A stretch of 64,000 nucleotides of DNA, taken from positions 3,164,001 through 3,228,000 of the forward strand of contig OZ249436.1 of assembly GCA_965235115.1 (NCBI GenBank), in the 5' to 3' direction. Every line of letters starts with the position of its first letter. Position 1 is the first letter of the stretch. A program made the translations under genes and the position numbers. Below are positions 44,680 to 57,176 of the stretch, piece by piece. The notes under the pieces are model-generated. The model saw only the letters and a program-made list of their open reading frames with translations, ran no database searches and was not told where the DNA came from. The DNA comes from Laetmonice hystrix. Its lineage: Eukaryota.

Positions 44680-47600
44680 ACCTCCCGCCCGGGTCCTGGT
44701 ATAAACTAGTCGAGGAGGTCGGACCTCTAACCTCACGTCACTGAGCTGTGTTAGGTGTGGGTGGAGGTTGTCTGAGAGCACTGAGGGTCCGGTGGGAACC
44801 TCCCGCCCGGGTCATGGTATAAACTAGGCGAGGAGGTCGGACCTCTAACCTCACGTCACTGAGCTGTGTTAGGTGTGGGTTGTCTGAGAGCACTGAGGGT
44901 CCGGTGGGAACCTCCCGCCCGGGTCCTGGTATAAACTAGTCGAGGAGGTCGGACCTCTAACCTCACGTCACTGAGCTGTGTTAGGTGTGGGTGGAGGTTG
45001 TCTGAGAGCACTGAGGGTCCGGTGGGAACCTCCCGCCCGGGTCCTGGTATAAACTAGTCGAGGAGGTCGGACCTCTAACCTCACGTCACTGAGCTGTGTT
45101 AGGTGTGGGTGGAGGTTGTCTGAGAGCACTGAGGGTCCGGTGGGAACCTCCCGCCCGGGTCCTGGTATAAACTAGACGAGGAGGTCGGACCTCTAACCTC
45201 ACGTCACTGAGCTGTGTTAGGTGTGGGTGGAGGTTGTCTGAGAGCACTGAGGGTCCGGTGGGAACCTCCCGCCCGGGTCCTGGTATAAACTAGGCGAGGA
45301 GGTCGGACCTCTAACCTCACGTCACTGAGCTGTGTTAGGTGTGGTTGGAGGTTGTCTGAGAGCACTGAGGGTCCGCTGGGAACCTCCCGCCCGGGTCCTG
45401 GTATAAACTAGACGAGGAGGTCGGACCTCTAACCTCACGTCACTGAGCTGTGTTAGGTGTGGGTGTAGGTTGTCTGAGAGCACTGAGGGTCCGGTGGGAA
45501 CCTCCCGCCCGGGTCCTGGTATAAACTAGGCGAGGAGGTCGGACCTCTAACCTCACGTCACTGAGCTGTGTTAGGTGTGGGCGGAGGTTGTCTGAGAGCA
45601 CTGAGGGTCCGGTGGGAACCTCCCGCCCGGGTCCTGGTATAAACTAGGCGAGGAGGTCGGACCTCTAACCTCACGTCACTGAGCTGTGTTAGGTGTGGGT
45701 GGAGGTTGTCTGAGAGCACTGAGGGTCCGGTGGGAACCTCCCGCCCGGGTCCTGGTATAAACTAGTCGAGGAGGTCGGACCTCTAACCTCACGTCACTGA
45801 GCTGTGTTAGGTGTGGGTGGAGGTTGTCTGAGAGCACTGAGGGTCCGGTGGGAACCTCCCGCCCGGGTCCTGGTATAAACTAGTCGAGGAGGTCGGACCT
45901 CTAACCTCACGTCACTGAGCTGTGTTAGGTGTGGGTGGAGGTTGTCTGAGAGCACTGAGGGTCCGGTGGGAACCTCCCGCCCGGGTCCTGGTATAAACTA
46001 GGCGAGGAGGTCGGACCTCTAACCTCACGTCACTGAGCTGTGTTAGGTGTGGGTGGAGGTTGTCTGAGAGCACTGAGGGTCCGGTGGGAACCTCCCGCCC
46101 GGGTCCTGGTATAAACTAGACGAGGAGGTCGGACCTCTAACCTCACGTCACTGAGCTGTGTTAGGTGTGGGTGTAGGTTGTCTGAGAGCACTGAGGGTCC
46201 GGTGGGAACCTCCCGCCCGGGTCCTGGTATAAACTAGGCGAGGAGGTCGGACCTCTAACCTCACGTCACTGAGCTGTGTTAGGTGTGGGTGGAGGTTGTC
46301 TGAGAGCACTGAGGGTCCGGTGGGAACCTCCCGCCCGGGTCATGGTATAAACTAGACGAGGAGGTCGGACCTCTAACCTCACGTCACTGAGCTGTGTTAG
46401 GTGTGGGTGGAGGTTGTCTGAGAGCACTGAGGGTCCGGTGGGAACCTCCCGCCCGGGTCCTGGTATAAACTAGGCGAGGAGGTCGGACCTCTAACCTCAC
46501 GTCACTGAGCTGTGTAAGGTGTGGGTTGTCTGAGAGCACGGAGGGTCCGGTGGGAACCTCCCGCCCGGGTCATGGTATAAACTAGGCGAGGAGGTCGGAC
46601 CTCTAACCTCACGTCACTGAGCTGTGTTAGGTGTGGGTGGAGGTTGTCTGAGAGCACTGAGGGTCCGCTGGGAACCTCCCGCCCGGGTCCTGGTATAAAC
46701 TAGGCGAGGAGGTCGGACCTCTAACCTCACGTCACTGAGCTGTGTTAGGTGTGGTTGGAGGTTGTCTGAGAGCACTGAGGGTCCGGTGGGAACCTCCCGC
46801 CCGGGTCCTGGTATAAACTAGTCGAGGAGGTCGGACCTCTAACCTCACGTCACTGAGCTGTGTTAGGTGTGGGTGGAGGTTGTCTGAGAGCACTGAGGGT
46901 CCGGTGGGAACCCCCCGCCCGGGTCCTGGTATAAACTAGACGAGGAGGTCGGACCTCTAACCTCACGTCACTGAGCTGTGTAAGGTGTGGGGGAGGTTGT
47001 CTGAGAGAGGGTCCGGTGGGAACCTCCCGCCCGGGTCCTGGTATAAACTAGATGAGGAGGTCGGACCTCTAACCTCACGTCACTGAGCTGTGTTAGGTGT
47101 GGGTGGAGGTTGTCTGAGAGGGTCCGGTGGAAACCTCCCGCCCGGGTCCTGGTATAAACTAGGCGAGGAGGTCGGACCTCTAACCTCACGTCACTGAGTT
47201 GTGTTAGGTGTGGGTGGAGGTTGTCTGAGAGCACTGAGGGTCCGGTGGGAACCTCCCGCCCGGGTCCTGGTATAAACTAGACGAGGAGGTCGGACCTCTA
47301 ACCTCACGTCACTGAGCTGTGTTAGGTGTGGGTGGAGGTTGTCTGAGAGCACTGAGGGTCCGGTGGGAACCTCCCGCCCGGGTCATGGTATAAACTAGGC
47401 GAGGAGGTCGGACCTCTAACCTCACGTCACTGAGTTGTGTTAGGTGTGGGTGGAGGTTGTCTGAGAGCACTGAGGGTCCGGTGGGAACCTCCCGCCCGGG
47501 TCCTGGTATAAACTAGGCGAGGAGGTCGGACCTCACGTCACTGAGCTGTGTTAGGTGTGGGTGGAGGTTGTCTGAGAGCACTGAGGGTCCGGTGGGAACC

Positions 47601-48299
47601 TCCCGCCCGGGTCCTGGTATAAACTAGACGAGGAGGTCAGACCTCTAACCTCACGTCACTGAGCTGTGTTAGGTGTGGGTGGAGGTTGTCTGAGAGGGTC
47701 CGGTGGGAACCTCCCGCCCGGGTCCTGGTATAAACTAGACGAGGAGGTCGGACCTCTAACCTCACGTCACTGAGCTGTGTTAGGTGTGGGTGTAGGTTGT
47801 CTGAGAGCACTGAGGGTCCGGTGGGAACCTCCCGCCCGGGTCCTGGTATAAACTAGACGAGGAGGTCGGACCTCTAACCTCACGTCACTGAGCTGTGTTA
47901 GGTGTGGTTGGAGGTTGTCTGAGAGCACTGAGGGTCCGGTGGGAACCTCCCGCCCGGGTCCTGGTATAAACTAGACGAGGAGGTCGGACCTCTAACCTCA
48001 CGTCACTGAGCTGTGTTAGGTGTGGTTGGAGGTTGTCTGAGAGCACTGAGGGTCCGGTGGGAACCTCCCGCCCGGGTCCTGGTATAAACTAGACGAGGAG
48101 GTCGGACCTCTAACCTCACGTCACTGAGCTGTGTTAGGTGTGGTTGGAGGTTGTCTGAGAGCACTGAGGGTCCGGTGGGAACCTCCCGCCCGGGTCCTGG
48201 TATAAACTAGACGAGGAGGTCGGACCTCTAACCTCACGTCACTGAGCTGTGTTAGGTGTGGGTGGAGGTTGTCTGAGAGCACTGAGGGTCCGGTGGGAA
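44680..48299. repeat. Satellite array, 118-bp unit x~31
   Basis: CCTCCCGCCCGGGTCCTGGTATAAACTAG.CGAGGAGGTCGGACCTCTAACCTCACGTCACTGAGC... highly homogeneous. Confidence 0.97.
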
Positions 48300-48704
48300 G
48301 TGTTGAGGGTGGAAGGCTGGGGTGCAGGAATGGGGTACTGAAAGGCGAGGGGGCACAGGGGGACGTGGAGAGCAGCGCTCTGCAGTTATCATTGAAATGT
48401 CAAATAATAAAGTGTCATTTACAGAAGAATAAAGGAGTGTGTCCCAGAGAGGATTTCTCCCGTAATGAGATCGTCATACGCTAGAATCGTCCTGAGAGTA
48501 CATCCAGTTAGCAGGATTTGTTGTCAACATGGGTGAATCAAACTGCAAGCCACAACCTATAACATGACATAGACAGAGAGCGTGGAGGGTTACCGTGTTA
48601 CCTTGCCCTGTACATGGTGCTATTGTTATAGGGTCGGGGGGGGGGGACGCTGCCCGAGCAGTGGTCAGAATTCATCTACCGACCCGCGGTGCCCGTTAAT
48701 GACA

Positions 48705-49447
48705 CGCCCGTGTGCAGTATGCCCTGGCCTGTACGCCCGTGTGCAGTACGCCTGGCCTGTACGCCCGTGTGCAGTACGCCTGGCCTGTACGCCCGTGTGC
48801 AGTACGCCTGGCCTGTACGCCCGTGTGCAGTATGCCTGGCCTGTACGCTCGTGTGCAGTATGCCCTGGCCTGTACGCCCGTGTGCAGTATGCCTGGCCTG
48901 TACGCCCGTGTGCAGTATGCCCTGGCCTGTACGCCCGTGTGCAGTATGCCAGGCCTGTACGCCCGTGTGCAGTATGCCCTGGCCTGTACGCCCGTGTGCA
49001 GTATGCCCTGGCCTGTACGCCCGTGTGCAGTATGCCCTGGCCTGTACGCCCGTGTGCAGTATGCCCTGGCCTGTACGCCCGTGTGCAGTATGCCTGGCCT
49101 GTACGCCCGTGTGCAGTATGCCCTGGCCTGTACGCCCGTGTGCAGTATGCCAGGCCTGTACGCCCGTGTGCAGTATGCCCTGGCCTGTACGCCCGTGTGC
49201 AGTATGCCAGGCCTGTACGCCCGTGTGCAGTATGCCCTGGCCTGTACGCCCGTGTGCAGTATGCCCTGGCCTGTACGCCCGTGTGCAGTATGCCCTGGCC
49301 TGTACGCTCGTGTGCAGTATGCCAGGCCTGTACGCCCGTGTGCAGTATGCCCTGGCCTGTACGCCCGTGTGCAGTATGCCCTGGCCTGTACGCCCGTGTG
49401 CAGTATGCCCTGGCCTGTACGCTCGTGTGCAGTATGCCCTGGCCTGT
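48705..49447. repeat. Minisatellite, 28-29-bp unit x~26
   Basis: GCCCGTGTGCAGTATGCCCTGGCCTGTAC repeated. Confidence 0.96.
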
Positions 49448-49687
49448 AACAACACCTCTCCACTCGCTATTGATTTAAAGTATTCACCGATCTCCAGTTT
49501 TACCATCCGAAACGCCATGATTTACTCCGTGCCTGTCATTCCCATTCAAACCGTAGAATGTATACGTATACTGCAGCAAATTTATCCCCAAACAATCGGT
49601 TTATGGCAGATTTATGACATTTCTGGCTCGCGAACTCCAAAGGTTCATTGACGGTTTCACATCTCAACAGTTCTATCAGGACTATAA

Positions 49688-51355
49688 GAATACCAGGTAG
49701 CATTCACAGGTGTGAATCATAGGAATTTGTAATCTGAAATACCAGGTATCATTCACAGGTGTGCATCATAGGAATTTGTAATCTGAAATACCAGGTATCA
49801 TTCACAGGTGTGCATCATAGGAATTTGTAATCTGAAATACCAGGTATCATTCACAGGTGTGCATCATAGGAATTTGTAATCTGAAATACCAGGTATCATT
49901 CACAGGTGTGCATCATAGGGATTTATAATCTGAAATACCAGGTATCATTCACAGGTGTGCATCATAGGAATTTGTAATCTGAAATACCAGGTATCATTCA
50001 CAGGTGTGCATCATAGGAATTTGTCATCTAAAATACCAGGTATCATTCACAGGTGTGCATCATAGGAATTTGTAATCTGAAATACCAGGTATCATTCACA
50101 GGTGTGCATCATAGGGATACGTAATCTGAAATACCAGGTATCATTCACAGGTGTGCATCATAGGAATTTGTAATCTGAAATACCAGGTATCATTCACAGG
50201 TGTGCATCATAGAAATTTGTAATCTAAAATACCAGGTATCATTCACAGGTGTGCATCATAGAAATTTGTAATCTAAAATACGAGGTATCATTCACAGGTG
50301 TGCATCATAGGGTGTTGTAATCTGAAATACCAGGTATCATTCACAGGTGTGCATCATAGGAATTTGTAATCTAAAATACCAGGTATCATTCACAGGTGTG
50401 CATCATAGGAATCTGTAATCTGAAATACCAGGTATCATTCACAGGTGTGCATCATAGGAATCTGTAATCTGAAATACCAGGTATCATTCACAGGTGTGCA
50501 TCATAGGAATTTGTAATCTGAAATACCAGGTATCATTCACAGGTGTGCATCATAGGAATTTGTAATCTAAAATACCAGGTATCATTCACAGGTGTGCATC
50601 ATAGGAATCTGTAATCTGAAATACGAGGTATCATTCACAGGTGTGCATCATAGGAATTTGTAATCTGAAATACCAATTATCATTCACAGGTGTGCATCAT
50701 AGGAATTTGTAATCTGAAATACCAGGTATCATTCACAGGTGTGCATCATAGGAATCTGTAATCTGAAATACCAGGTATCATTCACAGGTGTGCATCATAG
50801 GAATTTGTAATCTGAAATACCAATTATCATTCACAGGTGTGCATCATAGGAATTTGTAATCTGAAATACCAGGTATCATTCACAGGTGTGCATCATAGGA
50901 ATTTGTAATCTGAAATACCAATTATCATTCACAGGTGTGCATCATAGGAATTTGTAATCTGAAATACCAATTATCATTCACAGGTGTGCATCATAGGAAT
51001 TTGTAATCTGAAATACCAGGTATCATTCACAGGTGTGCATTATAGGAATTTGTAATCTGAAATACCAGGTATCATTCACAGGTGTGCATCATAGGAATTT
51101 GTAATCTGAAATACCAGGTATCATTCACAGGTGTGCATCATAGGGATTTATAATCTGAAATACCAGGTATCATTCACAGGTGTGCATCATAGGAATCTGT
51201 AATCTAAAATACCAGGTATCATTCACAGGTGTGCATCATAGGAATTTGTAATCTGAAATACCAGGTATCATTCACAGGTGTGCATTATAGGAATTTGTAA
51301 TCTGAAATACCAGGTATCATTCACAGGTGTGCATCATAGGAATTTGTAATCTGAA
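49688..51355. repeat. Minisatellite, 49-bp unit x~34
   Basis: GAAATACCAGGTATCATTCACAGGTGTGCATCATAGGAATTTGTAATCT repeated. Confidence 0.97.
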
Positions 51356-51848
51356 AGTTTACCCTAAGTGTCCCTTTGACCTTGGAGACAAAGGTAGAAC
51401 AGTCAGTGGAGAGAATAGAAGGAACAGATAGAAAGGTCAGACCGAGGTCAATGGTGACTTGACGGTGACCCCTGTGACCTTCAGAAATCCTGTACCTTTG
51501 CTGGATACAATATCTAACGTAGTGAAGAGATTGGCAAGTAAGAATATACAAGCGTCAGATTGTCAGAATGAGCAGTGAAGGTACGCATGGTTATGGTTAT
51601 GGGTGGCTGGGTGCGTGATGCCATGTCAACGGTCGTCACGGGAACCAGACCGCCCGGGATCAGAGGTCAGGGCGGGTCACGTGACGCCTCCACGTGCGTG
51701 TTCACGTGGCGAGCCGTGAATCAGTTATCACGGTTCGTTGGTTATCACAGTCTGGTTAACCTTCGAGGATTGAACAAAATATCGATTCCTGCCTTTCTGC
51801 CTTTCTAATAATTAAGCTGTCTAATTAAGCTCATGTAATTAGAATATT

Positions 51849-52460
51849 GATATCGTACAGATATTTTACAGCTGCTTATAGACATTACTTGATAACATTT
51901 CTGCAAACCTCCTTCGTTTTAAACTTTAATGTGCCTCTAGCTTTAATCTTGAGTCATGCTAACAGCAATCTAGACAGTGTATGCCGAAAGGACATTGTGT
52001 TCTCACATGGTGTGGATGGCAGCTTTGATACCAGAATTGGTCTAACAATAGTAGCAGGACATCTATAGGCGCCCAATTAGAGAACCTTAATTCCCCGTGT
52101 TTTAGCACCTGTTTGATGCAGCGTCCAGCGTCAATGTGTCCGTTTCACAACTGACTATTCCATCTCCTCTATATCTTTGTTCAGTCAAGCGTATTCAGTC
52201 CTTTGAGTCTGGCAACAAGATAATTTCAGTACAAGCAGGCTGCCCACTAAGGGCTTGGGCCAATAGCTGGTCAGGGTTATTTTGTTCTATTTTATTGGTC
52301 GGTTTGGGACCAGCCATTTTCCTTATATACTGATGTTATACCTTGAAACCTCACTTGGAGTTTTGGAATCGGAAATAAACAACCATCGTTAAACAACCAG
52401 GCTCCGTCCTTCTGCCCAGCAGTCTTCTGAAGGTCGTGGGCATACCAAATCCTGACGACA
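51849..52460 (+). repeat. 5' LTR
   Basis: Matches 53758-54369 at constant offset 1909 with no mismatch seen. Confidence 0.9.
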
Positions 52461-52462
52461 AA

Positions 52463-52480
52463 TGGTGGAGTTAACCCGGG
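52463..52480 (+). other. Putative primer-binding site (tRNA-Ala-like)
   Basis: TGGTGGAG, 2 nt after the LTR, is complementary to the CUCCACCA 3' end typical of tRNA-Ala; match beyond 8 nt is imperfect. Confidence 0.55.
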
Positions 52481-52563: not shown

Positions 52564-53655
52564 ATGGACGGATTTCTTCCAGAACCGGTGTTGGCTTACT
52601 TGCGATCTGCCAACAGTTTGGGATTCACCTTGAACTGGACAATCTCCAGCACACAGGACAAGAAATCGGTACTTCTCGAGTGGATTTCCCCATCGGAGAA
52701 GCGTTCCAGTGGACCAGCAAGTTGCAGTCAGAAGTCTCCCAGCAGACGGAGACGAGACGGCAAACGCTACCAGGCATGGATGAATGAGCAGAGGACAAGT
52801 GGACCAGCAGCCAGGACTTATAAGGTCCACCAAAGTGAGGAATTAGACCGAAAGCAGCCAACACATGTAAAACCGACGCAGAAACGGACAAACGACAAAC
52901 GCACACCAAGAAGGGCTGAAAGTGATCCCTCCCGACAAAACCAAGACCTTCGTCCTGAAGTTTGTGCTGCTTCACTGCAACCCATTAAGGCAACATCTAG
53001 TTCTACTCAAACCAGCAAACAAGAAAGTAATTCCCGTGTCACACAAACAACTGGCAGTGTGAAGTCGAGCTCAGCTCAAACGGTCAGACCGCCAATGTCA
53101 GCCAATGACGCGACTCAGACCGAGCAGTTAGACTCAGCCAGTGTGCCAACACAAACTTGGATCATCAGATGTGACATGGGTACCCAAACAGGACAAGAGA
53201 ATCAAGCAACGTCACGGATAGATCCATGGTATCCGGTGTGTGAAGAAACCAAGCTTCCCGATATTTCATTTCATGACCGACTAATAGCTACAAGACAGAA
53301 TCCACAGAAACTACCCAAACTGAAGATCTTGCCGGAAAGTAACAAACCAGGGAAAAACATGATGATCAAAGTCAACATGTTCTATGGTTCCCTCCTATAT
53401 ACAATAGATGCCCCTGTGTCGATGTCCATTCCAGTCGTCCTTGCAGACTTTGCATGGGAAGAGATAACTGACAGAGGGGAGAAACCTATTCCTGAGCAAA
53501 AGAAGATGTACCTTCTCACAAAGTTCAGAGGAGATCACTACGTGATACCTGAGAATGTACAGTTCAGGGACATTGTGCAGTTTAAAAGACATCACAATTT
53601 CTCAGTGACACTATTCCTGTATGATAAACGCAAAAGGACATACTCTTTTGGATGA
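52564..53655 (+). CDS. Uncharacterised 363-aa LTR-element protein (basic KSPSRRRRD motif, TQT-motif array, possible ubiquitin-like C-terminus)
   Basis: Uninterrupted ORF filling the internal region; first ATG in ACCATGG context; no CCHC knuckle, protease, RT or integrase motif visible. Confidence 0.75.
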   Translation: MDGFLPEPVLAYLRSANSLGFTLNWTISSTQDKKSVLLEWISPSEKRSSGPASCSQKSPSRRRRDGKRYQAWMNEQRTSGPAARTYKVHQSEELDRKQPTHVKPTQKRTNDKRTPRRAESDPSRQNQDLRPEVCAASLQPIKATSSSTQTSKQESNSRVTQTTGSVKSSSAQTVRPPMSANDATQTEQLDSASVPTQTWIIRCDMGTQTGQENQATSRIDPWYPVCEETKLPDISFHDRLIATRQNPQKLPKLKILPESNKPGKNMMIKVNMFYGSLLYTIDAPVSMSIPVVLADFAWEEITDRGEKPIPEQKKMYLLTKFRGDHYVIPENVQFRDIVQFKRHHNFSVTLFLYDKRKRTYSFG

Positions 53656-53757
53656 CCCTCCACAAAACGATAAAAATGTTGGTATATTTCTATGTGTGCA
53701 TTGTATAGCCAAATTTTATATATAAGAGCCGGGACGTCTCTTTTAAAGAAAGGGGAA

Positions 53758-54369
53758 GATATCGTACAGATATTTTACAGCTGCTTATAGACATTACTTG
53801 ATAACATTTCTGCAAACCTCCTTCGTTTTAAACTTTAATGTGCCTCTAGCTTTAATCTTGAGTCATGCTAACAGCAATCTAGACAGTGTATGCCGAAAGG
53901 ACATTGTGTTCTCACATGGTGTGGATGGCAGCTTTGATACCAGAATTGGTCTAACAATAGTAGCAGGACATCTATAGGCGCCCAATTAGAGAACCTTAAT
54001 TCCCCGTGTTTTAGCACCTGTTTGATGCAGCGTCCAGCGTCAATGTGTCCGTTTCACAACTGACTATTCCATCTCCTCTATATCTTTGTTCAGTCAAGCG
54101 TATTCAGTCCTTTGAGTCTGGCAACAAGATAATTTCAGTACAAGCAGGCTGCCCACTAAGGGCTTGGGCCAATAGCTGGTCAGGGTTATTTTGTTCTATT
54201 TTATTGGTCGGTTTGGGACCAGCCATTTTCCTTATATACTGATGTTATACCTTGAAACCTCACTTGGAGTTTTGGAATCGGAAATAAACAACCATCGTTA
54301 AACAACCAGGCTCCGTCCTTCTGCCCAGCAGTCTTCTGAAGGTCGTGGGCATACCAAATCCTGACGACA
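53758..54369 (+). repeat. 3' LTR
   Basis: Copy of 51849-52460, directly after the polypurine tract. Confidence 0.9.
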
Positions 54370-54469
54370 TTAGCCATATTCCACTTCTGTCTCATTGTGA
54401 GTTATCAGTAAATTAGGAATAATTAACGAGGAACAAATAAGCGCAGTTCAGGACAGTTTGAAATGACTG

Positions 54470-54683
54470 TTTCATGTTTGTGTACCATTGTGTACATGTT
54501 TGTGTACATGTTTGTGCACATGTTTGTGCACATGTCTGTGCACATGTTTGTGCACATGTTTGTGTACATGTTTGTGTACATGTTTGTGTACATGTTTGTG
54601 CACATGTTTGTGCACATGTTTGTGCACATGTTTGTGTACATGTTTGTGTACATGTTTGTGTACATGTTTGTGTACATGTTTGT
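54470..54683. repeat. Short tandem repeat (CATGTTTGTGYA)n
   Basis: 12-bp unit x~17. Confidence 0.93.
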
Positions 54684-55080
54684 GGGACACGCATCACCGA
54701 GATGACAGTAAGACATGATGTATTGTGGCTTTGTTCTACCTGCCCAGTCCATGCGAGGTTACCACTCTCACCTCACCATGGACAGTCACCACCTCAGCCG
54801 CGCTGTTAGGAGAAACGGATATCTGGGTCTATTTGTTTAGAAAGGAAATCTGAAACCCGTATTTTGTTATGATATCAGAGTAATTGGGCAAATGGTCACT
54901 AAACCATACTGTTATCTCCGTGCCGGTGAAATCCCAGCTGTGAGAGATATTATTGAGGCGAAGTGATGGCACCGGTGTAATGGCACCGATGTGGTGGCAC
55001 CTGGGTGATGGCACCCGTGTGATGGCACCCGTGTGATGTGAACGTGGCCCATCCTTTATACTGGAGTGGGCATCTTTGTC

Positions 55081-56491
55081 TGAACATGACCACAGTCCAC
55101 GGCTCTCAGTCTGTGTGAACATGACCACAGTCCACGGCTCTCAGTCTGTGTGAACATGACCACAGTCCATGGCTCTCAGTCTGTGTGAACTTTACCTAAG
55201 TCCACGGCTCTCAGTCTGTGTGAACGTTACCTAAATCTACGGCTCTCAGTCTGTGTGAACGTTACCTAGGTCCACGGCTCTCAGTCTGTGTGAACATGAC
55301 GACAGTCCACGGCTCTCAGTCTGTGTGAACGTTACCTAGGTCCACGGCTCTCAGTCTGTGTGAACGTTACCTAGGTCCACGGTTCTCAGTCTGTGTGAAC
55401 GTTACCTAAGTCCACGGTCTCAGTCTGTGTGAACATTACCTAAGTCCTCGGCTCTCAGTCTCTGTGAACGTTACCTAAGTCCACGACTCTCAGTCTGTGT
55501 GAACGTTACCTCAGTCCACGGCTCTAAGTCTGTGTGAACGTTACCTAAGTTGAAGACTCTCAGTCTGTGTGAACATGACCACAGTTCACGGCTCTCCGTC
55601 TGTGTGAACGTTACCTAAGTCCACGGCTCTCAGTCTGTGTGAACGTTACCTCAGTCCACGGCTCTAAGTCTGTGTGAACGTTACCTAAGTTGACGGCTCT
55701 CAGTCTGTGTGAACATGACCGCAGTCCACGGCTCTCAGTCTGTGTGAACGTTACCTAAGTCCACGGTTCTCAGTCTTTGTGAACGTTACCTAAGTCCACG
55801 GTTCTCAGTCTGTGTGAACGTTACCTAAGTCCACGATTCTCAGTCTGTGTGAACGTTACCTAGGTCCACGGCTCTCAGTCTGTGTGAACGTTACCTAGGT
55901 CCACGGCTCTCAGTCTGTGTGAACGTTACCTAGGTCCACGGTTCTCAGTCTGTGTAAACGTTACCTAGGTCCACGGCTCTCAGTCTGTGTGAACGTTACC
56001 TAAGTCCACGGCTCTCAGTCTGTGTGAACGTTACCTAAGTCCACGGCTCTCAGTCTGTGTGAACGTTACCTAAGTCCACGGCTCTCAGTCTGTGTGAACG
56101 TTACCTAGGTCCACGGCTCTCAGTCCGTGTGAACGTTACCTAAATCTACGGCTCTCAGTCTGTGTGAACATGACGACAGTCCACGGCTCTCAGTCTGTGT
56201 GAACGTTACCTAGGTCCACGGCTCTCAGTCTGTGTGAACGTTAGCTAAGTCCACGGCTCTCTCTGTGTGAACATGACCACAGTCCACGGCTCTCAGTCTG
56301 TGTGAACGTTACCTAAGTCCACGGCTCTCTCTGTGTGAACATGACCACAGTCCACGGCTCTCAGTCTGTGTGAACATGACCACAGTTCACGGCTGTCAGT
56401 CTGTGTGAACGTTACCTAAGTCCACGGCTCTCAGTCTGTGTGAACGTTACCTAAGTCCACGGCTCTCAGTCTGTGTGAACGTTACCTAAGT
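55081..56491. repeat. Minisatellite, 35-bp unit x~40, two interspersed variants
   Basis: TGAAC(GTTACCTA/ATGACCAC)AGTCCACGGCTCTCAGTCTGTG. Confidence 0.96.
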
Positions 56492-56629
56492 CTCCCCCAC
56501 CCCGGCGTGCCCTCCCCCAGGGAGCCGGGCGGTCGCCGTGGGCGGCCGTGACTGACCCATGTCTTTGTGTGCCGAGGCGGACGGCCCTCATAATGAAGGG
56601 TAACTTGTAACCTGACAGAAGGCACTGAT

Positions 56630-56876
56630 AACAGAGCAAGACCTGAGGCAGGTCAGTAGTTATCTAACAGAGCAAGACCTGAGGCAGGTCAGTAGTTATC
56701 TAACCACCCACACGGGCCCCCTGAACACCGCAAGAACAGAGCAAGACCTGAGCCAGGTCAGTAGTTATCTAACCATCCACACGGGCCCCCTGAACACCCT
56801 GAACACCGCAAGAACAGAGCAAGACCTGAGCCAGGTCAGTAGTTATCTAACCACCCACACGGGCCCCCTGAACACC
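56630..56876. repeat. Composite tandem repeat
   Basis: AACAGAGCAAGACCTGAG.CAGGTCAGTAGTTATCTAAC x4 with variable extension. Confidence 0.8.
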
Positions 56877-56926
56877 CGGCACTCCGGCGGCTATTTACGG
56901 CACAGATCGCCTCTAATCTTCACTCC

Positions 56927-57176
56927 CAGTCTGATCTATAACCACTGTCAACTCAAACAGTCAAACAGTCTGAGCTATAACCACTGTCAACTCAAACAGC
57001 CAAGCAGTCTGATCTATAACCACTGTCAACTCAAACAGTCAAACAGTCTGATCTATAACCACTGTCAACTCAAACAGCCAAGCTTATCTTCTATCACCAC
57101 TGTCAACTCAAACAGTCAAACAGTCTGATCTATCACCACTGTCAACTCAAACAGCCAAGCTTATCTTCTATCACCA
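56927..57176. repeat. Minisatellite, 39-bp unit x~6
   Basis: CAGTCTGATCTATAACCACTGTCAACTCAAACAGTCAAA repeated. Confidence 0.88.

Follow-up and report, generated by a model that had tools for sequence, protein, structure and literature searches.

LC8 ladders are already known from host scaffold proteins. Certain viral proteins also carry LC8 motifs, and the P protein of rabies virus and VP35 of Ebola virus both bind LC8. In the accounts of yeast Nup159 and human KANK1 L2, glutamine-anchored motifs are strung through disordered sequence with short uniform linkers (3–5 residues) and imperfect sites (PMC12803091, PMC10046861), and folded or binding modules stand at both ends of the array. Nup159, a rod-forming LC8 client, is given linkers of 4–5 residues (PMC12803091, PMC10046861), and KANK1, with linkers of 3–4 residues, is reported to build its rods from individually weak sites (PMC12803091). 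ASCIZ (ATMIN) combines a multivalent TQT array and a possible nuclear role with zinc fingers, uneven linkers and heterogeneous complexes, the last two as described in PMC10046861. LC8 also drives dimerisation in transposon–host conflict, in the Panoramix–LC8/Cut-up complex of flies (PICTS or SFiNX; PMC7861614). Among mobile elements, the TRIM, Helenus and Ajax groups are described as having two LTRs, a PBS (primer binding site) and a PPT (polypurine tract), lacking gag and pol, and having their PBS in common with autonomous Gypsy elements; the same account gives TRIMs as shorter than 1 kb and without a mobilisation protein (PMC10886601). A protein other than gag or pol can serve an LTR element: CERV, from the autonomous Caenorhabditis elegans element Cer1, is reported to be nuclear, to export element RNA and to form rods, which shows that export of RNA from the nucleus can be the task of an accessory protein of an LTR element (PMC10309623).

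The protein described here, P0001, is encoded in a 64,000-nucleotide stretch of the Laetmonice hystrix contig OZ249436.1 (positions 3,164,001–3,228,000; hereafter the window). It resembles Nup159 and KANK1 in array design, linkers and terminal modules; for those two, structural proteins of the host, binding has been measured, whereas a mobile element encodes P0001, whose binding is predicted. With ASCIZ it has in common the multivalent TQT array and possibly a nuclear role, but not the uneven linkers or the zinc fingers. Panoramix belongs to the host silencing side, has two motifs and comes from flies; P0001 stands on the transposon side with six. The likeness to CERV is one of analogy only; CERV belongs to an autonomous element, and the cited parts of its description (PMC10309623) make no connection to LC8.

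P0001 is the sole gene of a 2,519-bp LTR element that has an LTR pair, a PBS and a PPT but no gag or pol, in agreement with the original prediction of a retroelement protein. The features of the element are as follows.

51851..52460, forward strand: 5′ LTR, 610 bp, identical to the 3′ LTR
52463..52480, forward strand: primer-binding-site-like sequence starting TGGTGGAG, after the 5′ LTR
52564..53655, forward strand: single ORF of 363 residues (P0001), without a Pfam family
52564..52800, forward strand: conserved N-terminal module, dN/dS 0.08–0.26
52801..52992, forward strand: basic/polar disordered linker (about residues 80–143), poorly conserved, dN/dS 0.35–0.82
52993..53193, forward strand: array of six LC8-type motifs, with 3–5-residue linkers between 8-residue motifs
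53008, 53044, 53077, 53116, 53152 and 53185, forward strand: starts of the array Q codons (Q149, Q161, Q172, Q185, Q197 and Q208)
53233..53652, forward strand: folded C-terminal domain (residues 224–363), predicted beta-grasp core at about 263–359, without a C-terminal diglycine
53745..53759, forward strand: polypurine tract, directly 5′ of the 3′ LTR
53760..54369, forward strand: 3′ LTR, 610 bp, identical to the 5′ LTR

The LTRs start with TATCGT and end with ACGACA, an imperfect terminal inverted repeat. The PBS-like sequence presumably fits the 3′ end of tRNA-Ala, and its core is common to all subfamilies of the element and to an autonomous Ty3/Gypsy copy. No gag or pol was found in the 1,299-bp internal region, which holds the 363-residue ORF alone and matches nothing in Pfam even at E values as high as 1; the element likewise contains no Rfam match and no tRNA detectable by ARAGORN. 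This anatomy is that of TRIM, Helenus and Ajax elements, and the 4-bp target-site duplication of the family is as in animal Helenus (PMC10886601). We nevertheless reject membership of these groups, whose members are shorter than about 1–1.3 kb, non-coding and, in Helenus and Ajax, equipped with LTRs derived from small RNAs: the present elements measure 2.5–2.9 kb, carry one selected ORF and have LTRs without tRNA- or 5S-like sequence. The window copy itself is flanked by TTGA (51847–51850) and TTAG (54370–54373), a mismatched target-site duplication in which the first two bases agree and the closing dinucleotide of the 5′ flank is the same as the one just before the 3′ LTR; a second copy, L018, repeats the pattern (GATA versus GAGA). 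An overhang of 2 bases at the cDNA end may have survived repair, or the PPT junction may have been the donor in a gene conversion. Dense, unrelated minisatellites surround the element (44680–51356 and 54473–57176, with units of 118, 29, 49, 12, 35 and 39 bp).

Searching the 627-Mb assembly with the P0001 protein gave 64 matches, 51 full-length and stop-free and 13 partial, and the full-length copies form subfamilies that are 30–89% identical. An LTR pair accompanies 47 of 53 ORF rows, at 96–100% LTR identity, and a 4-bp target-site duplication is present in 35 of those 47 (several of the rows that lack one belong to tandem or truncated copies). The family is a recently active non-autonomous LTR retrotransposon. 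We rejected a captured host gene as the origin of these matches, all of the full-length ones examined sitting behind the element's PBS. Tandem arrays with shared LTRs occur (L041, three copies 2,081 bp apart on contig C21), as do duplicated and partly truncated copies (L027, L030 and L032 on contig C29). The window LTR (51851–52460) is 89.5% identical over 486 nt to that of L051, whereas their ORFs are only about 34% identical: subfamilies have exchanged LTRs and ORFs. In contigs of two sequencing runs from one sample, summed depth reaches about 12,000 on the LTR body (52030–52350), compared with 52–60 on the flank and 295–640 on the ORF; depth is not copy number and carries no information on expression here, and the pile-up suggests a much larger family with this LTR sequence.

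A Ty3/Gypsy element of the L064 type is a plausible candidate for the helper that copies the element. L064, one of three PBS-like loci, contains gag, protease, RT, RNase H and integrase. Its PBS core and LTR end match those of the element, with no further LTR similarity. The stretches examined at the other two loci, L063 and L065, contain no gag or pol, a search through the RNase H family identified no helper among 150 scored of 1,191 candidates, and a loose first look did not find the N-terminal module of P0001 inside loci of the L064 helper family. In the candidate helper Pol (L064:2184–6500), one LC8-like motif (SVACQTD) lies between RNase H and integrase, and the tail, which Pfam does not recognise, is chromodomain-like. 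In this autonomous Ty3/Gypsy copy an extra 223-residue ORF follows pol (L066:187–858), without a TQT array and with no visible relation to P0001. Near the PBS-like site of L063 lies a single long open frame (L063:3942–4673), possibly a retrocopy, which we take to resemble ribosomal protein S2.

The array comprises six xQT motifs, five TQT and one AQT (SSSTQTS, SRVTQTT, SSSAQTV, NDATQTE, SVPTQTW and DMGTQTG), all in frame of the ORF at 52564–53655 (forward strand); both the motifs and their Q-to-Q spacing of 12, 11, 13, 12 and 11 residues are exactly as first listed. Five TQT were never reached in 100,000 shuffles of residues 79–226, of residues 140–215 or of the whole protein (means 0.17–0.27). 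The six QT dipeptides alone give p = 0.001–0.011 in the same shuffles, and, for motifs placed at random in 148 residues, spacing as even as this has p = 1.5e-5. The segment had also been called probably disordered and its DNA something other than a simple tandem repeat, and both statements hold. Residues 100–226 lie below pLDDT 50 in an AlphaFold2 model, without secondary structure (low pLDDT being used here as a proxy for disorder). TRF reports no tandem array at 52990–53193, nucleotide identity at lags of 30–75 is 0.23–0.39, and identity between motifs upstream of the anchors is only 0.25; we reject a DNA tandem repeat as the explanation of the array. All other TQT clusters in the six frames of the window are translated DNA tandem repeats, such as the TQTC repeats in the minus-strand translation of the 12-bp array at 54473–54684, a DNA-repeat artefact.

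Six database homologues at 34–40% identity keep the array. Across 15 representatives at 29–39% identity (10 from this genome and 5 from the database), the glutamine is present at motifs 1–4 in 15 of 15 and at motifs 5 and 6 in 13 of 15, the two exceptions belonging to one subfamily with a different C-terminal half, and the spacing is kept at 11–14 residues. Motifs 5 and 6 are lost in one still-active subfamily (7 of 49 distinct coding sequences). Both CAA and CAG are in use for the array glutamines. Comparison of the window subfamily with the L016 subfamily gives, over the 18 anchor codons, 10 synonymous differences against 4 that are non-synonymous (dN/dS about 0.05). The ratio is 0.89 in the motif flanks, 0.80 in the upstream linker, 0.19 in the N-terminal module and 0.38 in the C-terminal domain, all of these values being rough given synonymous sites near saturation. 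Closer subfamily pairs show a weaker contrast, with anchor dN/dS of 0.16–0.60. The intact frames of young copies were not counted as evidence of selection, but this contrast between subfamilies was, and it speaks against a neutral reading by decay. Judged from these sequence comparisons, the array anchors are under purifying selection. The original view that the motif is kept at the protein level is thus borne out, as is conservation in homologous ORFs, a check proposed with it: the glutamine is fixed, the anchors change synonymously and the flanks have diverged.

The published LC8 pattern reads D/S at −4, K at −3, any residue at −2, T/V/I at −1, Q, T/V at +1 and D/E at +2, in the form given in PMC3078936. 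As motifs were picked on the anchor alone, positions −4, −3 and +2 lie outside the selection. Among 47 distinct motifs of the close family, D/S occupies −4 in 28 (background 0.16), K/R occupies −3 in 13 (background 0.13) and D/E occupies +2 in 13 (background 0.10), and none has a large hydrophobic residue at −4; in the motifs of distant relatives the corresponding counts are 11, 8 and 7 of 32, all of these statistics counting related sequences as independent. The claimed fit to LC8 motifs therefore extends past the TQT anchor, family-wide, at all three positions. With a Q0 anchor, T/V/I-type residues at −1 and +1, disorder and family-wide flank preferences, P0001 has the predicted make-up of a multivalent LC8 client. 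The six window sites are mixed by the position rules of PMC6607443, two having a hydrophobic +2, two a small −3 and one a proline at −2; one of the six has an acidic +2. Isolated TQT peptides are often non-binders, 31 of 53 phage-display hits being reported without LC8 binding (PMC6607443). Three single-exon canonical LC8 genes, each of 89 residues, are present in the host genome.

AlphaFold-based prediction of LC8 sites is described in PMC12057147, and a complex model with LC8 was among the checks first proposed for the array. Four LC8 chains with two chains of residues 138–216 score 0.53, versus 0.23 for the best of three controls, a weak result in that scores of 0.60 or less comprise 5 of 78 solved complexes together with all four passing mismatches, and disordered partners fall outside the calibration. 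At least 57% of contacts agree between runs, with partner pLDDT of at least 41. The pass may reflect likeness to LC8–TQT complexes already solved. Overall, LC8 probably binds the array. Of the two outcomes proposed for LC8 recruitment, oligomerisation fits better, having rod-type spacing in its favour, than dynein trafficking, which is disfavoured because LC8 is now seen as a dimerisation hub and not as a dynein cargo adaptor, according to the discussion in PMC6607443.

The array is flanked by two modules. Residues 1–79, the best-conserved part of P0001, form a helix–strand–strand unit (1–41) followed by an Arg/Lys-rich helix, KSP..RRRD..R..W (57–79), and the modelled module is a possible nucleic-acid-binding or NLS segment. 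Its best match in solved chains has Z 2.8, no viral model falls under E 0.17 and the ESM Atlas returns nothing for residues 1–80; missing fold matches do not make the fold new. Residues 224–363 have a confident predicted fold (pLDDT mostly 77–88), with a core predicted to be a beta-grasp of ubiquitin/SUMO/RBD-like type: the predicted model matches the PI3K RBD with Z 8.8 (rmsd 3.0, 99 aligned) and SUMO with Z 8.1 (rmsd 1.9–2.0, 73–75 aligned). Structure lists for this domain are filled mostly by ubiquitin-fold chains, with no Foldseek E below 0.001, and ESM Atlas leads for residues 225–363 are all below 0.9, including Rad60-SLD at 0.81. A conjugatable ubiquitin-like modifier is rejected, the C-terminal diglycine being absent (P0001 ends in SFG and homologues end differently). 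No longer or fused form of the domain was found, which is weak evidence, and no coiled coil or other dimerisation domain is demonstrated in P0001. Pfam has no family for P0001, nor for 11 of 12 homologues.

Queried on its own, the N-terminal module retrieves 41 proteins: 7 of the close family, 21 Mytilus-named and 13 unnamed distant relatives. The 13 share the N-terminal module alone, with unrelated spacers and with C-termini unrelated to the beta-grasp domain of P0001. Eight of them, from about four lineages, have 2–5 strict anchors downstream, often 11–12 residues apart and including VQC, IQT and CQT forms; the anchor classes of this set were defined after the sequences had been seen, and it was a profile containing the array that first brought up six of the eight, three of these six with their best-scoring stretch in the N-terminal part. 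In 20 of the 21 Mytilus-named carriers there is one strict anchor or none, and in the other there are two, separated by 59 residues; the module can therefore function with no ladder attached. One distant relative, P0017, has a weak Chromo match (PF00385, E 0.00098) below the curated cut-off, and comparison with PDB sequences confirms a chromodomain in neither P0017 nor P0046; the tail of P0046 and P0048 bears a faint resemblance to a chromodomain-like pol tail (p 0.013–0.025). Trees of the two ends of the P0001 family conflict, and database sequences interleave with the subfamilies of this genome, a pattern indicative of lineages that are old and of domains that have been shuffled. We infer that the distant relatives are transposon-borne. 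No relatives were found in viral contigs, and none of P0017 in JGI metagenome contigs. The module is also fused into the Mytilus models P0050, P0051, P0053, P0056, P0061 and P0068, under names such as OBSCN, TTN, HEPH, ENAH, BEN-domain protein and MAO; these are probably repeat ORFs merged by gene prediction. A distant match within the genome (G000:C4:38683918–38684199, reverse strand) covers the N-terminal module only, at 42–44% identity, in a long open frame.

On balance we favour the reading that P0001 is a multivalent LC8 (DYNLL) ladder, the sole protein of a non-autonomous LTR family copied by a Ty3/Gypsy helper, and a self-serving adaptor. Host LC8 dimers would bind two parallel chains cooperatively, at up to six individually modest sites, and would make a stiff rod of two chains, about 20 nm long by scaling from KANK1, out of the disordered segment; if LC8 does bind, this role as a rod scaffold is probable. 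At one end of the rod, two basic N-terminal modules would provide a bivalent hold on the element's own RNA or DNA, probably in the nucleus, and at the other two beta-grasp domains would contact a host or helper protein. As such an adaptor P0001 could promote expression, export or packaging of the element, and this service would be why an element without gag and pol keeps the gene.

The same LC8-zipped modular rod might instead counter host transposon silencing, its basic head, LC8 ladder and swappable chromatin- or SUMO-type effector marking an undescribed class of coding 'satellite' LTR elements in marine invertebrates; we hold this to be unlikely. It would mirror the LC8-dimerised piRNA silencing complex of flies. 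To our knowledge Panoramix occurs in flies only, and we know of no LC8-dependent silencing complex in this host. Counter-silencing in which the ladder acts as an LC8 sponge or competitor, or tethers a SUMO/ubiquitin-like decoy or a chromodomain to element chromatin, seems improbable. It does accord with the report that Drosophila LC8/Cut-up dimerises the PICTS piRNA complex and that repression of transposons requires it (PMC7861614), with a swappable C-terminal domain (a ubiquitin/SUMO/RAWUL-like fold in P0001, the weak Chromo match in P0017), and with rapid divergence off the anchors and domain shuffling, as would suit a conflict protein. However, LC8 is described as abundant and broadly distributed (PMC6607443), making a sponge costly, a trans-acting suppressor would help non-coding copies equally and so weaken selection on the gene, and the chromodomain evidence is the unconfirmed P0017 match and the faint P0046/P0048 resemblance.

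LC8 is a dynein subunit, and foamy-virus Gag has been linked to LC8, but we consider it quite unlikely that LC8 ties an element RNA–protein particle to dynein so that it is carried to the nucleus or germ plasm: the number of sites, six, and their rod-type spacing indicate structure over transport. LC8 motifs are reported in the viral proteins HPV E4 and rotavirus VP4, and the same source has clients and the dynein intermediate chain occupying the same symmetric LC8 grooves (PMC6607443). Q0 alone is truly invariant, with variation at −1 and +1 (L, C, A, S, Y), and the complex model with LC8 is weak; another partner, or self-assembly into, for example, a cross-beta or stacked filament, could be read from this, yet we give it little credence, as the preferences at −4, −3 and +2 are specifically LC8-like. 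RHIM-type cores carry a conserved glycine, which is absent here. Clustered S/TQ sites are targets of ATM and ATR, and five of the six window motifs contain TQ, but a phosphorylated SQ/TQ cluster tied to DNA-damage signalling is very improbable: of the 49 distinct coding sequences, those with neither S nor T before Q number 49 for motif 3, 31 for motif 2 and 25 for motif 4, and distant relatives use IQT, VQC and CQT. The conserved S/T that defines an SQ/TQ cluster domain is absent, with V, A, L or C at −1 in many homologues while Q stays fixed, and these codon data already go most of the way to refuting the reading. Least credible of all is a chance pattern, or an unselected leftover of some old tandem duplication within a captured ORF that is decaying. 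The regular spacing of 11–13 residues hints at an origin by duplication, and young copies would appear intact even if unselected; the shuffle tests, the absent DNA periodicity and the anchors that stay fixed between subfamilies at near-saturated synonymous sites oppose it, and the contrast in dN/dS between anchors and flanks refutes it.

In the open-access literature we found neither a transposon-encoded LC8 ladder nor, in the same literature, a gag/pol-less LTR element kept alive around an LC8-ladder gene. P0001 adds an unannotated protein family without a Pfam entry, whose N-terminal module is also present in many Mytilus gene models. If LC8 binding holds, the ladder would offer cooperative multivalency studies a natural six-site array of 70 residues with dozens of natural variants, and would make it possible to ask in concrete terms why an element that is not autonomous bears the cost of a protein.
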